This document shows positions 1,576-10,183 of a DNA stretch of 26,375 nucleotides, piece by piece. Both the position numbers and the translations under genes were made by a program. Source of the stretch: a virus (Duplodnaviria; Caudoviricetes); the IMG/VR virus record IMGVR_UViG_3300010052_000145, positions 1-26,375 of that record. One strand, written 5' to 3'. The notes below the pieces were generated by a model. It had not been told where the DNA came from. It worked only from the letters and a program-made list of their open reading frames with translations, and did not search any database. Numbering within the stretch: the stretch's first letter is position 1; every line of letters starts with the position of its first letter.

Positions 1576-1696
1576 CGTCGTCCCTCGTCAGGCGGATGCT
1601 GATGATGGTCGGGCGCCACGCCGCGGCCCATGCGATGCCGGACGTGACGCCGAACAGGTAGGCGCCGAGCGCGATCCAGGGCCAGAGGTCAGGCAT
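1568..1696 (-). CDS. Small membrane protein (42 aa, MPDLWPWIALGAYLFGVTSGIAWAAAWRPTIISIRLTRDDDA)
   Basis: Translated by hand (not in the ORF track); SD GGAGG; one hydrophobic helix; overlaps both neighbours by 8 nt. Confidence 0.6.
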   Translation of the reverse strand: MPDLWPWIALGAYLFGVTSGIAWAAAWRPTIISIRLTRDDDA

Positions 1697-1961
1697 CGCG
1701 CCCCTCCCGCGCGGCCCGGGCAGCAAGACCTATCTTGCCGTAGCCGTAGCTCGCACCCGGTGTGCCAGGGGCGGGCATTTCAGCCCCCTGCAGCCGGCGG
1801 CATTTAATCGCCTCGTCCTCGATCTCCGCCAGCGCCGCGCGGAGGCGGGTGATCTCGGCGGCGCCTTCGTGGCGTAGATCGCGCAGCTCGCATTCGGCAT
1901 AGACGCCGGTCGGCGTCTGCAGCCTCTCCACGATGTCCGGCGGCGCGTGCGCGTCAGGCAT
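1689..1961 (-). CDS. Hypothetical phage protein (DIVERL...AAEITRLR type, 90 aa)
   Basis: ATG 1961 overlaps the upstream stop; common phage early-gene motif. Confidence 0.65.
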   Translation of the reverse strand: MPDAHAPPDIVERLQTPTGVYAECELRDLRHEGAAEITRLRAALAEIEDEAIKCRRLQGAEMPAPGTPGASYGYGKIGLAARAAREGRDA

Positions 1962-3665: not shown

Positions 3666-4113
3666 GGCGCGGCTCCTTCTGCGCGAGCGCTCGGATGGCG
3701 GCGGCGATGCGAAGATCGCGCCCGAACACCTGTGCCGCCGAGAGAGGGCAGGGACCGTTATCAATCGGCCAGAAACAGAGCAGCGCCGCCGCCTGATCCA
3801 GCGCCAGCGCCCGCGCTTCCTTCATCTCGGCAGCAGCCTCTGACGCGTGCTTCTCCCGCTCCGCCTGCACGGCGGCGGCGACCTCGGCGGGGGTGAGGCA
3901 GGGGCCGAGGTAGCGAAGGCACCGATGCGTGACATAGGATTTCGGAGTGTCCGTTAGGACGCTTCCCTCCCACCAGCCCTTCAGTTCACCGTTCCATGTG
4001 GCATGCCATTCAAGAACGATGCGCCCACCAGCTTCATATTCGAGCCAATGCCACCCATCCTCTTCCGGGTTCTCGGGCCTGCCGTCCCACGGTGTTGCGG
4101 CCGCGTCAGTCAT
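3655..4113 (-). CDS. Hypothetical phage protein (152 aa)
   Basis: SD GGAGG; Trp-rich N-terminal domain (WDGRPENPEEDGWHWL...YLGPC). Confidence 0.7.
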   Translation of the reverse strand: MTDAAATPWDGRPENPEEDGWHWLEYEAGGRIVLEWHATWNGELKGWWEGSVLTDTPKSYVTHRCLRYLGPCLTPAEVAAAVQAEREKHASEAAAEMKEARALALDQAAALLCFWPIDNGPCPLSAAQVFGRDLRIAAAIRALAQKEPRRGE

Positions 4114-4552
4114 GGCGCGGGGCCTCCGCCGGGGCGAGCGCGGCGCGAGTGGCGTCAGCGAGGCGCGCTGCTTGATCGAAGTCCGCCAGCCACTCGACGG
4201 CAGTCATGGGCTCGTCACCATCCTCTTCGATGGCGATTTCCATGAAGCGTCGCAGGTTCCCGCCGTTGCGCGCCGCAGCCCGCGCCGCATCCCGCTCGGC
4301 CTCGGCGCGCATAGCGCGCTGGCCGGCCTTGAGGCTCTCATCTTCCGCGCGCTCGGCGTCAGCAGACGCCGCCTCGGCGCGAGCGAGCAGCCGACCGTTC
4401 TCGGCAGCAAGCTTCGACAGCACGTCCGACACCTCGCGATGCGCACGTAACGGCGAACCACGATAGTCAGCCGCCAGCCGCCGCGCTTGGCCCGCCAGCG
4501 CATCCAGGTGCTCACGGGTCAGAGGCACGGCCTCGCGTGTGGTGGCGGTCAT
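4106..4552 (-). CDS. Hypothetical coiled-coil phage protein (148 aa)
   Basis: ATGA coupling at 4549-4552; Ala/Glu/Arg heptad-like segment (RAEAERDAARA). Confidence 0.65.
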   Translation of the reverse strand: MTATTREAVPLTREHLDALAGQARRLAADYRGSPLRAHREVSDVLSKLAAENGRLLARAEAASADAERAEDESLKAGQRAMRAEAERDAARAAARNGGNLRRFMEIAIEEDGDEPMTAVEWLADFDQAARLADATRAALAPAEAPRHD

Positions 4553-4749
4553 GCGCGCCGCCTCAGAACGGCGAGCGCCCGCGTCAGATCCATGCTGGCG
4601 CGTCGCAAGGCGCCGCTCTCGCGAGGGGTGCCGATGGAGTACGTACGGCCGAAAGCCTCGTATGTGCCTTGCGCTTTCCGCCACTTCGCCACGCGAGACA
4701 GGAAGCGCTTCGCCTCTTCCTCCGCGGCCTTGATCTTGTCGGTCGTCAT
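4549..4749 (-). CDS. Small phage protein (66 aa)
   Basis: EAKRFL...SGALRRASMDLTRALA motif; ATGA coupling at both ends. Confidence 0.7.
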   Translation of the reverse strand: MTTDKIKAAEEEAKRFLSRVAKWRKAQGTYEAFGRTYSIGTPRESGALRRASMDLTRALAVLRRRA

Positions 4750-7266: not shown

Positions 7267-8024
7267 ATCCGGCACACCCTGCACTGCATGTCCGCGATCG
7301 GATCGCGGCGCGGCTTCGGCACGCGGCCGGCCTCGAACTCGGCCTTGAGGCCGTCGAGCGACGCCGGCCACGTGTCCCGCCCCGGCGAGCGGAACGTGTG
7401 GCCGATCGCCCGCTCTTGCGCCGCGGCTTCCTCGAACACGTCGGGATGCTCGCGCCAGAGGTCGTGCCACTCGTGCAGGCGCTGGAAGAAGCACCTTCCG
7501 CAATCCGTGCGCTTCGGGATGGTGACGCCCCGCTCCGCCAGGTAGCCGAGCACGTCGCCCAGGCCCCACCCCCACTCGCGCATAGGGAAGACAGCCTCGA
7601 CGCCGGGCACCTTGCTGTAGTCCCCGCCCTCGCGCGCTTCCTCATCAGCTCGCAGGCCGACGTAGGAGATGACGCGGTAGTACCGGGCCGATTGCTGAGA
7701 CAGCCACGCCGCGTAGGGCTCGATCTTCAGCATCCGGGTGCACCAGCGCTGCCGCCAATTCGGCAATGCGCTCTGGTCGGTGATCAGGCCGTTCAGCCCG
7801 CGGCGATGCATGATCGGCAGCAGCGGCGAGCCCAGCAGATCGGCCAATTTGCGCCAGTGCGCGAACATTTCCGGCAGCTCATCGCCGGTCGGCGTGCAGG
7901 CGTAGGTGTAGCGCGTTGCGGGGTTCATCTCCTTCAGCCGTAGCGCCATGGCTGTGCTGTCCTTGCCGCCCGAGAGCGCGACGACGTGCAGCGTCGTCGC
8001 GAAGAGGTCCGTCTGCGCCTCCAT
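7263..8024 (-). CDS. PAPS-reductase-family PP-loop protein, probably Fe-S binding (253 aa)
   Basis: PP-loop VVALSGGKDS; RWCT, GLRADE, FPM, DCGRCFFQ and terminal CRVC; SD GGAGGT. Confidence 0.88.
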   Translation of the reverse strand: MEAQTDLFATTLHVVALSGGKDSTAMALRLKEMNPATRYTYACTPTGDELPEMFAHWRKLADLLGSPLLPIMHRRGLNGLITDQSALPNWRQRWCTRMLKIEPYAAWLSQQSARYYRVISYVGLRADEEAREGGDYSKVPGVEAVFPMREWGWGLGDVLGYLAERGVTIPKRTDCGRCFFQRLHEWHDLWREHPDVFEEAAAQERAIGHTFRSPGRDTWPASLDGLKAEFEAGRVPKPRRDPIADMQCRVCRI

Positions 8025-8323
8025 CACCGCACCTCCGGCCGCGCTGCGTCCTCGGACGCGCGGAACAGCAGGTCGCCCCACAGATCCAGCGTCGCGCGGT
8101 CGATGTGCACCAGCGTGTGGGATGACCCGAACGCGGCGCCGAAATTGGTCGTGGAAATCTTGACCGTGATCGCATCCGGCGCGTGCTGCATCACCGACAT
8201 GATGCAATGCTCCGGCCCCGCCTCGCGGCGCTCCAGCAGCCGCACGGGCTCTGGCTCCAGCATGACGTCCGGGCGGGACTCCTCCGGCGTCGTGTTGCGG
8301 AAATTGTCGCGGAAGCCGTCCAT
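8024..8323 (-). CDS. Hypothetical protein (99 aa)
   Basis: SD GGAGG; TGATG overlaps at both ends. Confidence 0.65.
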   Translation of the reverse strand: MDGFRDNFRNTTPEESRPDVMLEPEPVRLLERREAGPEHCIMSVMQHAPDAITVKISTTNFGAAFGSSHTLVHIDRATLDLWGDLLFRASEDAARPEVR

Positions 8324-8760
8324 CACGCGCGGCCCTCCGCGCGGGCGGAGTGGCGCACTCGGTTCGTGATTCTGCTGTGTTCGGAGTGGGAAACGACCTG
8401 CAGGTTCTCTAGCCGGTTGTCCGTCTTGTCTCCGTTGATGTGGTGGACGTCTTCGTCCGGTAGCAGCATGCGGCCCAACGCCGCTTCCACGATGAGCCGA
8501 TGCTTCTTGACGTGCTTCTGCGAGCCGCCAATCCAGATCCGCCCGACGACGTAGCCCTTCTGGTCCACCCACCAAGTCGACGGCTTACGGTTCTGACCGC
8601 CGTTCTTCGACCACATGCACGGCCTTGAGCAGAAGCGGCTGGAGGCGCGTAGTGGCCGGAAGGTGGCCGAGCAAGCCGCGCACGCGCGGTCCGCGAGCAC
8701 GCGATTCCTGCGGCCCCACGTATCAGTGAGAGGCGCCATCGGGCGATCAGCGCGGGGCAT
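8323..8760 (-). CDS. HNH endonuclease with N-terminal Zn-binding motif (145 aa)
   Basis: CAAC...FCSRPC; KHRLIVE...DVHHINGDKTDNRLENL...H. Confidence 0.9.
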   Translation of the reverse strand: MPRADRPMAPLTDTWGRRNRVLADRACAACSATFRPLRASSRFCSRPCMWSKNGGQNRKPSTWWVDQKGYVVGRIWIGGSQKHVKKHRLIVEAALGRMLLPDEDVHHINGDKTDNRLENLQVVSHSEHSRITNRVRHSARAEGRA

Positions 8761-8986
8761 GGATCGCCTCCACGATGGCGCGGGCCTCTACATCACCTTC
8801 GGCAGCGCGCTTGGCGGCGAAGTCGTAGAGCGTTGGTCCGGCGGCGATCAGGCGGGCGTTCTGCGCTCCGTGGACCGAGGCGCGGCTATAGACGACAGCG
8901 ACGTTCTCGCCATTGGGGCCGACAATCCACGACCCGTGCCCAATACCGCCGGCATCGGCCCACGGCCCCGGGGTTGGCTCAGACAT
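8747..8986 (-). CDS. Small phage protein, TPGPW...NARLIAA family (79 aa)
   Basis: PTPGPW and NARLIAAGP motifs; SD GGAGG. Confidence 0.75.
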   Translation of the reverse strand: MSEPTPGPWADAGGIGHGSWIVGPNGENVAVVYSRASVHGAQNARLIAAGPTLYDFAAKRAAEGDVEARAIVEAIHAPR

Positions 8987-9398
8987 GGCGCGCCTCCAGG
9001 CCCCGCTTGATGAAGAGGCTATGGCGCTCGCCACGCGACGTGCGGCCATGCGCTTCGCGGTCGGCGGCGTTCTCGGCGCGGGTCCCCCAAGTCAGGTTGG
9101 CCGCGCGGTTGTCCGTCTTGATCCCGTTCAGATGGCGCACTTCATGCGCGGCGCTCGGGCGAGGGGGCAGGTATGTCGCTGCGACCAAGCGATGGGCCGC
9201 CAGCCTTGTGCGCTTGCCGGAAACCGTCAGGCGGACAGACGGATAGCCGTGGTCATCCGGTTGTTGCGCCATCTCGCGCCGCCCATAGCCGCGCCAGTTG
9301 TGGCCGACTGAGAACACGCGGCCATCTTTTGTGACCTCGTATCCCGCCGTGTGCTGCGGCCCGCTCTCGGCTGCTGTGGTGCTGGTGCTCTCGGGCAT
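8979..9398 (-). CDS. NUMOD4-like/HNH homing endonuclease (139 aa)
   Basis: YEVTKDGRVFS, GYPSVRL, AHRLVA, VRHLNGIKTDNRAANL...N; SD GGGAGG. Confidence 0.9.
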   Translation of the reverse strand: MPESTSTTAAESGPQHTAGYEVTKDGRVFSVGHNWRGYGRREMAQQPDDHGYPSVRLTVSGKRTRLAAHRLVAATYLPPRPSAAHEVRHLNGIKTDNRAANLTWGTRAENAADREAHGRTSRGERHSLFIKRGLEARHV

Positions 9399-9422: not shown

Positions 9423-9474
9423 AAGGTGACTGAAACTCACATGAGGGTCAAGAGAAAAAGTGAGCCAAAGTCAC
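9423..9474 (-). promoter_or_regulatory. PL-like early promoter with two operators
   Basis: -35 TTGACC (9451-9446). Operators GTGACTGAAACTCAC (9426-9440) and GTGAGCCAAAGTCAC (9460-9474) flank it. Confidence 0.75.
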
Positions 9475-9635
9475 CTGCGGTTCAGCCCGCGCTCAGATCC
9501 CCACAAGAACGCGTGAGGCCGGCGTCGCCGAAGCGGATCTGGCGCGAGGTTGCGACTATCGACTCGTCATCGCTCGCAGGTTGCGTTAGCGTTGACGAAT
9601 GTATTTAGAATGGAGTCGAAATGGGGAAACAGTCC

Positions 9636-9676
9636 TAGACGCCCGCGGGTTGCGGTATTATGTTCCTATTTCGCTC
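9636..9676 (+). promoter_or_regulatory. Putative sigma70 promoter overlapped by an alphaproteobacterial LexA-like box, antisense to the repressor
   Basis: TAGACG(9636-41)-N17-TATGTT(9659-64). GTTC-CTATTTC-GCTC (9662-9676) differs by one base from GTTC-N7-GTTC. Confidence 0.55.
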
Positions 9677-9696
9677 AGTTGCTCGGGAGGCGCCTG

Positions 9697-9948
9697 GTGG
9701 GTAATCAGCAATCGTTAGGCCGCCTCATCCCCTTTCCGGACAGCAGATCCCAAAGCGCCGTTGGAGAGCCGCTTCAGGAACGCCTCAACGATGGCGCGGT
9801 CCTCGGGAGGTATCCGCTCGAAGAGTGTGAGAAGTGTCCGCTTGTCCGCATCTTCGGCGACATCCTCGCCATGCGCGCCAGGTTCGCGGGTGGACCAGCC
9901 GAGCAGGTAGTTCGGGCTGGTCCTGTAGTGGTGGGCAATGGCGATTAG
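9697..9948 (+). CDS. Putative antisense-overlapping ORF (83 aa), candidate antirepressor
   Basis: SD GGGAGG (9685-90) 6 nt before GTG, directly after the putative SOS promoter. It is in register with cI, so it could be a shadow frame. Confidence 0.3.
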   Translation: MGNQQSLGRLIPFPDSRSQSAVGEPLQERLNDGAVLGRYPLEECEKCPLVRIFGDILAMRARFAGGPAEQVVRAGPVVVGNGD

Positions 9949-10107: not shown

Positions 10108-10183
10108 GTGACACAAACTCACCACGCGTGAGTGAGCTAAAGGCACATTCGCGCTTGACCCGTGAGGTGATTTTGGCTCACAT
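10108..10183. promoter_or_regulatory. OR-like switch: three operators and PR promoter
   Basis: GTGACACAAACTCAC (10108-22), GTGAGCTAAAGGCAC (10132-46), GTGATTTTGGCTCAC (10167-81); -35 TTGACC at 10155-60. Confidence 0.8.

Follow-up and report, generated by a model that had tools for sequence, protein, structure and literature searches.

How could DNA damage induce a prophage whose repressor has no domain for cleaving itself, and could the inducer be encoded by a small open reading frame antisense to the repressor gene? Both questions arise at one locus in the window, by which we mean the whole 26.4-kb stretch of DNA analyzed. The window is a provirus record (63% complete) with integrase, RecE/RecT-like, terminase, portal, and capsid genes. 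The best named homolog of its cI comes from Falsiroseomonas (Falsiroseomonas sp. HW251, WP_430660524; 60% identity), which makes an Acetobacteraceae-type alphaproteobacterium the probable host. Searches with cI alone found no close relatives in viral contigs, phages, or 90% protein clusters, and the plasmid matches to cI were generic XRE regulators. The features of the immunity region are collected in Table 1.

Table 1. Features of the immunity region, in window coordinates
Feature	Position	Strand	Basis
Leftward putative operator pair, GTGA-N7-TCAC	9426-9440, 9460-9474		Repeat families D1-D3, I2, and I8
Predicted promoter: -35 TAGACG (9636-9641), 17 nt, -10 TATGTT (9659-9664)	9636-9664	+	Sequence
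Predicted LexA box GTTC-CTATTTC-GCTC, one mismatch to GTTC-N7-GTTC	9662-9676	+	Sequence; overlaps -10 and start region
Shine-Dalgarno (SD) site GGGAGG, 6 nt before GTG	9685-9690	+	Sequence
Antisense gene, 83 codons, GTG 9697 to TAG 9948	9697-9948	+	Open frame and codon-level selection; likely antirepressor
IPFP motif (family V/I-x-F-P)	9727-9738	+	Opposite the C-terminal tail of cI; FP invariant in 4/4
CxxCPLV motif	9826-9846	+	Invariant in 4/4; followed by a predicted amphipathic helix encoded opposite the interdomain linker of cI
cI-like XRE repressor, 127 aa	10098-9715	-	HTH_3 family match
Rightward putative operators, GTGA-N7-TCAC-like	10108-10122, 10132-10146, 10167-10181		Repeats between cI and cro
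cro-like gene (YdaS/P22 Cro HTH), 78 aa	10190-10426	+	Family matches; divergent from cI, co-oriented with the antisense gene

The repressor and its surroundings

A family scan of cI returned HTH matches only and no S24 domain, in agreement with an earlier note on this DNA, which had described the repressor as lacking the autoprotease. The predicted structure has an HTH domain (residues 10 to 66), a disordered linker (75 to 84), two C-terminal helices (81 to 112), and a disordered tail that ends in -DEAA. No S24 or M78 peptidase match was found anywhere in the window record, 63% complete as it is, or in any of the five records searched for each family (for M78, the window and four related records), one of which is complete; the complete phage G411 gave no match to either. 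A host protease might act on CI in place of an element-borne M78 enzyme. Because GTGA-N7-TCAC repeats occur on both flanks and a cro-like gene is divergent from it, we take cI to be the immunity repressor. The leftward repeat pair brackets the TTGACC -35 element of the leftward early promoter.

Two HNH endonuclease genes (8323-8760 and 8979-9398, minus strand) come first in the leftward early operon. The interval 9480-9635, some 150 nt that separate the boxed promoter from the leftward operators, contains more hexamers (TTGACG/TTGCGT) and is AT-rich in one patch. A 28-nt repeat, 89% identical, pairs positions 8761-8788 in an early gene with 9777-9804 in the C-terminal coding region of cI and is probably due to chance. 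Seven cI homologs known as proteins only (P0007, P0010, P0012, P0015, P0019, P0022, and P0042) keep tails of the form [RG][KE]-x-[DN]-x-x and R/G-A-x-x-A/T, features that would permit the same antisense gene; the Falsiroseomonas homolog P0004 has no such tail motif.

An antisense gene within cI

The promoter hexamers, box, SD site, GTG start, 83-codon frame, and 234-nt in-register overlap all lie where the earlier note had placed them. The overlap with cI (9715-9948) takes up 234 of the 252 nt of the antisense gene (93%), with codons in register with the opposite strand of cI. No credible minus-strand ORF near 9480-9660 competes for the site, as had also been stated: minus-strand frames from stop to stop within 9470-9665 span just 20 to 40 codons.

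Homologs of the encoded protein were recognized at three further loci (L141, L393, and L428). The four products are 68 to 83 aa long, the three others being 32 to 36% identical to that of the window, and a G, the FP pair, CxxCPLV, and an A are invariant among them. A predicted amphipathic helix (residues 48 to 62) follows CxxCPLV and the IxFP segment is unstructured, both in a weak, low-confidence model (pLDDT 55.7) that was too poor for a fold search. Metal binding or redox sensing is a possible role of the CxxC pair. Six of seven element-bearing genes, versus one of seven control XRE genes, have an FP pair among their first 14 antisense codons.

Outside these loci the protein is without recognizable kin. 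It matched nothing in Pfam, PHROG, or NCBIfam and had no homolog in a set of 5.8 billion predicted proteins, and an atlas search gave nothing at 0.9 or above; its profile matched no PDB chain at E values up to 1, and no family member turned up in class-wide samples of 301, 401, and 251 genomes. One CEKCPLV match (L448) was rejected as chance. Even so, since relatives share the layout and the antisense frame is under selection, its sequence very likely represents a real, unannotated protein-coding gene.

Evidence for dual coding

The in-register overlap lets cI force some likeness on its opposite strand, and codon tests were therefore applied to the window, L141, L393, and L428, leaving out L412 and L480, whose antisense frames have no Cys. 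The results below accordingly come from four sequences, with pair counts that are not independent and motifs that were named after the alignment had been viewed. An open in-register antisense frame is no evidence in itself, and the earlier caveat that such frames are common was borne out: the codon usage of the phage predicts one in about 0.8 of cases per sequence, and control XRE genes carry in-register antisense frames of 10 to 106 codons.

The cI codons opposite both Cys residues are ACA or GCA in 8/8 cases, compared with 0/36 of the other Thr and Ala codons among the last 65 codons; usage of ACA/GCA in the phage is 6%. Opposite the invariant Cys, cI alternates between T and A, and opposite the invariant F it alternates between K (AAA) and E (GAA). 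Identity at the first, second, and third cI codon positions is 0.55/0.61/0.35 in the HTH part and 0.45/0.58/0.45 in the overlap, where positions 1 and 3 are conserved symmetrically. Changes that are silent only in the antisense frame and changes that are silent only in cI stand at 13:48 in the HTH part and at 45:44 in the overlap. Under a synonymous-recoding null, antisense identity was 0.233 ± 0.021, compared with 0.305 observed, a value reached by 2 of 5,000 recodings and by 0 of 5,000 with each of two other codon tables. With realistic codon use, CxxCP arose in 0.02 to 0.9% of recodings per sequence. The conserved motifs of the antisense protein face the least constrained parts of the repressor, the linker and the tail.

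Other tests were negative. GC3 did not differ between the overlap and the HTH part (P = 0.41), L412 and L480, with their frames devoid of Cys, shared no antisense conservation (9 identities versus 11.2 ± 2.0 expected), and no variants in the boxed antisense element were present in two sets of DNA contigs. The features of the locus, each at chance level singly, are raised above chance by their conservation in other phages and by codon-level selection.

Promoter and LexA box

The predicted promoter scores 8/12, which is below the threshold of a sigma-70 scan (0 sites from the scan), and one-mismatch boxes are at chance level in the window (15 versus 13.0 ± 3.4 in shuffled sequences). The box departs at one position from GTTC-N7-GTTC, the consensus reported for Caulobacter LexA (PMC12700426). 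Among 23 host matches in 251 alphaproteobacterial genomes, the 8 sites with a GCTC half-site resembled chance sites inside genes; for this reason, tolerance of GCTC by LexA is not supported by these sequences. The promoter-plus-box architecture is like that before host genes of the PA0069 family, which are damage-inducible. The window box also shares its first half-site, T prefix, AT-rich spacer, and position over the -10 element with the perfect boxes of the seven relatives described below. No RNA structure signal was detected in the 5′ region (z = 0.62), and no strong terminator-like site was found between the boxed promoter and cro.

The same layout in other phages

A phage found only through its RecT (L004) has an SD site, a perfect box, and the same CCTAGAC promoter as the window, converging on an unrelated short cI. 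Patterns derived from the window and L004, and containing no repressor information, were used to scan viral, metagenome, and genome collections; one pattern scan took in 120 matches sampled from about 970, and loci past the first 80 were available as 300-nt flanks. Among 378 distinct promoter-plus-box sites screened, 146 of them in DNA of at least 55% GC, a converging short XRE repressor was present at seven (L141, L393, L412, L480, L494, L196, and L004). The box lies 24 to 51 nt beyond the repressor stop in these loci; the cI stop of the window is 39 nt from its boxed promoter. Among the screened sites, an XRE gene was in the sense orientation at only one, and only one site was inside a gene. 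A strict viral scan gave three matches, two of which had this layout, one of them (L004) having helped to define the pattern. Boxes are perfect in 7/7 layout loci, unlike the window's own; the pattern required this for L480 and L494, and also allowed GCTC for L141, L393, L412, and L196.

The spacing TAGAC-17/18-(T/C)ATGTT or CAGTGT is common to L141, L393, L412, L480, L494, and L004, and GGGA/GGAGG-type SD sites stand at the equivalent place in the relatives. Seven repressors scanned for families matched HTH families only, the truncated repressor of L412 being left out. Of 65 sites from a pattern scan of genome contigs, none showed the layout, and sites inside a gene (L257) and in an RNA-virus polymerase (L140) were set aside as chance matches.

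The conservation that the earlier note had proposed looking for behind short cI genes was seen at 7/378 sites, with perfect boxes. There were 17 RecT-related loci, and immunity regions were read in the two closest. The closest of all (L003, 95% complete) has a short S24-less cI (7290-7608) with no boxed promoter or element, no perfect box, and no M78 match; such phages can therefore do without a boxed antisense unit. L428 keeps the antisense protein, but its record, 62% complete, is without a box either upstream of the gene or elsewhere. Only two of the four loci found by protein alone have the box, which counts against the reading of the gene as SOS controlled that we favor below.

Several observations concern the neighborhoods of these loci. 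In L428, a lipoprotein-like gene has been inserted in the slot between cI and the leftward operators, and the antisense gene (1666-1872, minus strand) begins 7 nt beyond it; cargo genes occupy the same slot in L004, L141, and L494. In L004, recT (3935-4627) is on the cro side of the immunity region, opposite to its arrangement in the window. A second type of boxed antisense frame, next to unrelated short repressors, was seen in L004 (917-1111) and L196 (minus strand, behind a box at 1501-1556); these frames have CxACFF...CPE(A)C-like motifs with four to six Cys residues, off-register in L004 and in register, with no clear start, in L196.

Comparison with known switches

Coliphage 186 Tum, N15 AntC, and SPC32H Ant couple induction to the SOS response through LexA and a small antirepressor; all three are free-standing genes with an enterobacterial LexA box. 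The antisense protein matched no Pfam, PHROG, or NCBIfam model, those of the Tum, AntC, and GfoA families included, and this lack of likeness in sequence to any known antirepressor counts against our main reading. In ImmR/ImmA and DdrO/IrrE, XRE repressors are cleaved by a protease. These systems resemble the window in having a short XRE repressor without S24, and DdrO and the ICEBs1 XRE were the top PDB matches of cI; they differ in their M78 metalloprotease, found in 0/5 records here. In Gifsy-1 and Gifsy-3, the small LexA-repressed antirepressors GfoA and GfhA are reported to inactivate the non-cleavable repressors GfoR and GfhR (PMC3121763), the same logic as we propose for the window, although they act from outside the immunity region.

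The closest parallel is the AimX-AimC-AimL system of phi106-type arbitrium phages of Bacillus (PDB 9IAQ and 9SF2). As described, it has a short non-cleavable XRE repressor with a C-terminal helical domain, a divergent cro-like gene, and, beyond a LexA site, a small ORF that converges on the repressor gene and overlaps its 3′ end in antisense. In phi106 the ORF is a 29-aa aimX just downstream of the LexA site, with a 30-bp antisense overlap with the end of aimC (10.1101/2025.11.23.689978). The claim in the earlier note that no case of this layout had been described therefore fails. In the same preprint, recoding and start-to-stop tests indicate that the AimX protein acts, and not its RNA, by binding AimC and blocking its oligomerization and DNA binding (10.1101/2025.11.23.689978). 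Reported AimX ORFs measure 29 to 80 aa, against 68 to 83 aa for the antisense products here. AimX proteins are reported to be highly divergent (10.1101/2025.11.23.689978), so the absence of an AimX match for the antisense protein is weak evidence.

Of 18 PDB sequences, AimC (9IAQ) alone gave a convincing match to the cI profile that spanned both domains (E = 1.8e-8). Most of that match comes from the HTH, and the C-terminal profile by itself failed to find 9IAQ. AimC also ranked third in the cI fold search, with a different domain orientation. The window differs from arbitrium in several ways. It has no aimR or aimP and no RRNPP/TPR-type match among 44 ORFs scanned, and where arbitrium has aimR/aimP, the window has the leftward operators and HNH genes upstream of its small ORF. 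In comparison with phi106 as described, it has an alphaproteobacterial LexA box, an overlap of 234 nt in register (across the linker and C-terminal domain) instead of 30 bp, and the CxxC and IxFP motifs.

A proposed switch and its alternatives

The earlier note had proposed an SOS-gated convergent unit directed against a non-cleavable repressor and acting through antisense transcription, a nested antirepressor, or both. The unit is supported in that promoter, box, and SD site are conserved behind unrelated short cI genes; between the two modes of action, the nested protein is strongly favored over the antisense RNA because the antisense frame has its own selection signal and because AimX is reported to act as a protein in Bacillus. 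On balance, and with real room for doubt, we consider that the antisense gene probably encodes a LexA-repressed antirepressor that binds the C-terminal helices of CI in the manner of AimX. The observations comprise the anatomy of the locus, a repressor without a self-cleavage domain, the recurrence of the promoter, box, and SD site next to short, unrelated cI genes, and codon-level selection in the antisense frame. On DNA damage, RecA-dependent loss of host LexA from the box would open the promoter of the antisense gene. By analogy with AimX-AimC and Gifsy, the protein would then bind the C-terminal oligomerization helices of CI (residues 81 to 112) and stop oligomerization; CI would leave its GTGA-N7-TCAC operators, and transcription of cro and the early genes would start. 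The antisense transcript may help in cis, probably in a secondary role. The missing 37% of the prophage could hold another antirepressor.

The protein might instead be real and SOS induced and yet serve as a protease adaptor, bringing the -AA degron of CI to ClpX through IxFP, or act elsewhere in the host, for example on LexA or on cell division; we regard this as unlikely, though worth keeping in view. The N-terminal IxFP motif, unstructured in the model, may resemble ClpX-tethering motifs and is more widely conserved (6/7) than the CxxC helix. CI ends in -AA in the window, L393, L428, P0007, P0010, and P0022, and C-terminal AA is reported as a common ClpXP degron in Caulobacter (PMC11034885). 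However, -AA is not kept in L141, L480, and L494, the tail is also constrained by the antisense frame, and a site beside the repressor fits stoichiometric antirepressors of the AimX type.

A somewhat more doubtful alternative is that the transcript is decisive, through antisense pairing, polymerase collision, or read-through into cro, with the protein an accessory. Promoter and box are kept even as the antisense frames differ in sequence and, in L004, in register; L196 has no clear start, the frames of L412 and L480 are not conserved to each other, and the stretch from promoter to cro is free of a strong terminator-like site. Codon-level selection on the protein at four loci argues against this, as does L428, which retains the protein without the boxed promoter. 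In phi106 and phiW23, start-to-stop mutation is reported to have abolished the effect with the transcript remaining (10.1101/2025.11.23.689978).

A composite scheme, in our estimate improbable, would have repressor and antirepressor share their base pairs, the gene being born by antisense overprinting of the cI linker and tail, with the CxxC helix gripping CI, IxFP tethering ClpX, the -AA end of CI handed over on SOS induction so that a non-cleavable repressor becomes a protease substrate, and the Cys residues forming a metal or redox gate; other boxed promoters (L004 and L196) would have recruited other frames independently.

That the gene is real but escapes LexA control in the window prophage, either with a weakened box that allows leaky spontaneous induction or under another regulator, seems less probable again. 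The box has its mismatch, GCTC is unsupported in host promoters, L428 has lost the box, and the frame of the antisense gene is without a stop as far upstream as 9550, with other promoter-like hexamers ahead of it. The features that the box has in common with the seven perfect ones (half-site, prefix, spacer, and -10 position) speak for LexA control. Finally, it is very improbable that the ORF is a by-product of cI codons in GC-rich DNA, with a promoter-like sequence due to chance: open in-register frames are common, PLV is almost automatic given D-[EKQ]-R in cI, the box alone is at chance level, and GC3 is unchanged, but rare codons fall precisely at both Cys residues, the T/A and K/E switches in cI keep the antisense C and F, positions 1 and 3 are conserved symmetrically, promoter, box, and SD site recur at a fixed distance, and L439, with the same cI motif ERALxT, has no Cys on the other strand.

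Implications and further SOS-linked loci

The switch logic and the convergent layout are already described. What is new is their occurrence without arbitrium and in Alphaproteobacteria, with 93% nested dual coding and a CxxC motif. The literature searched, most of it outside subscription journals, contained no alphaproteobacterial case and none nested almost wholly in register within the repressor gene; the AimX candidates and overlaps tabulated with the preprint may bear on the point. Many alphaproteobacterial prophages have repressors unable to cleave themselves and no annotated inducer, and the opposite strand of the repressor would be the hiding place of one such inducer, where antisense genes are dropped by gene callers. 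The proposed switch would extend the AimX type beyond Bacillus arbitrium phages. With its codon-level evidence of dual coding, the locus is also a clear example of an antisense overlapping gene in a bacterial virus; the regulator and the repressor that it presumably targets would have to coevolve on shared nucleotides.

Perfect-box promoters were also seen before free-standing small genes at four other loci, in phages or a chromosome (L093, L110, L126, and L468), the gene in L110 being umuD-like; these are candidates for further SOS-linked cargo.
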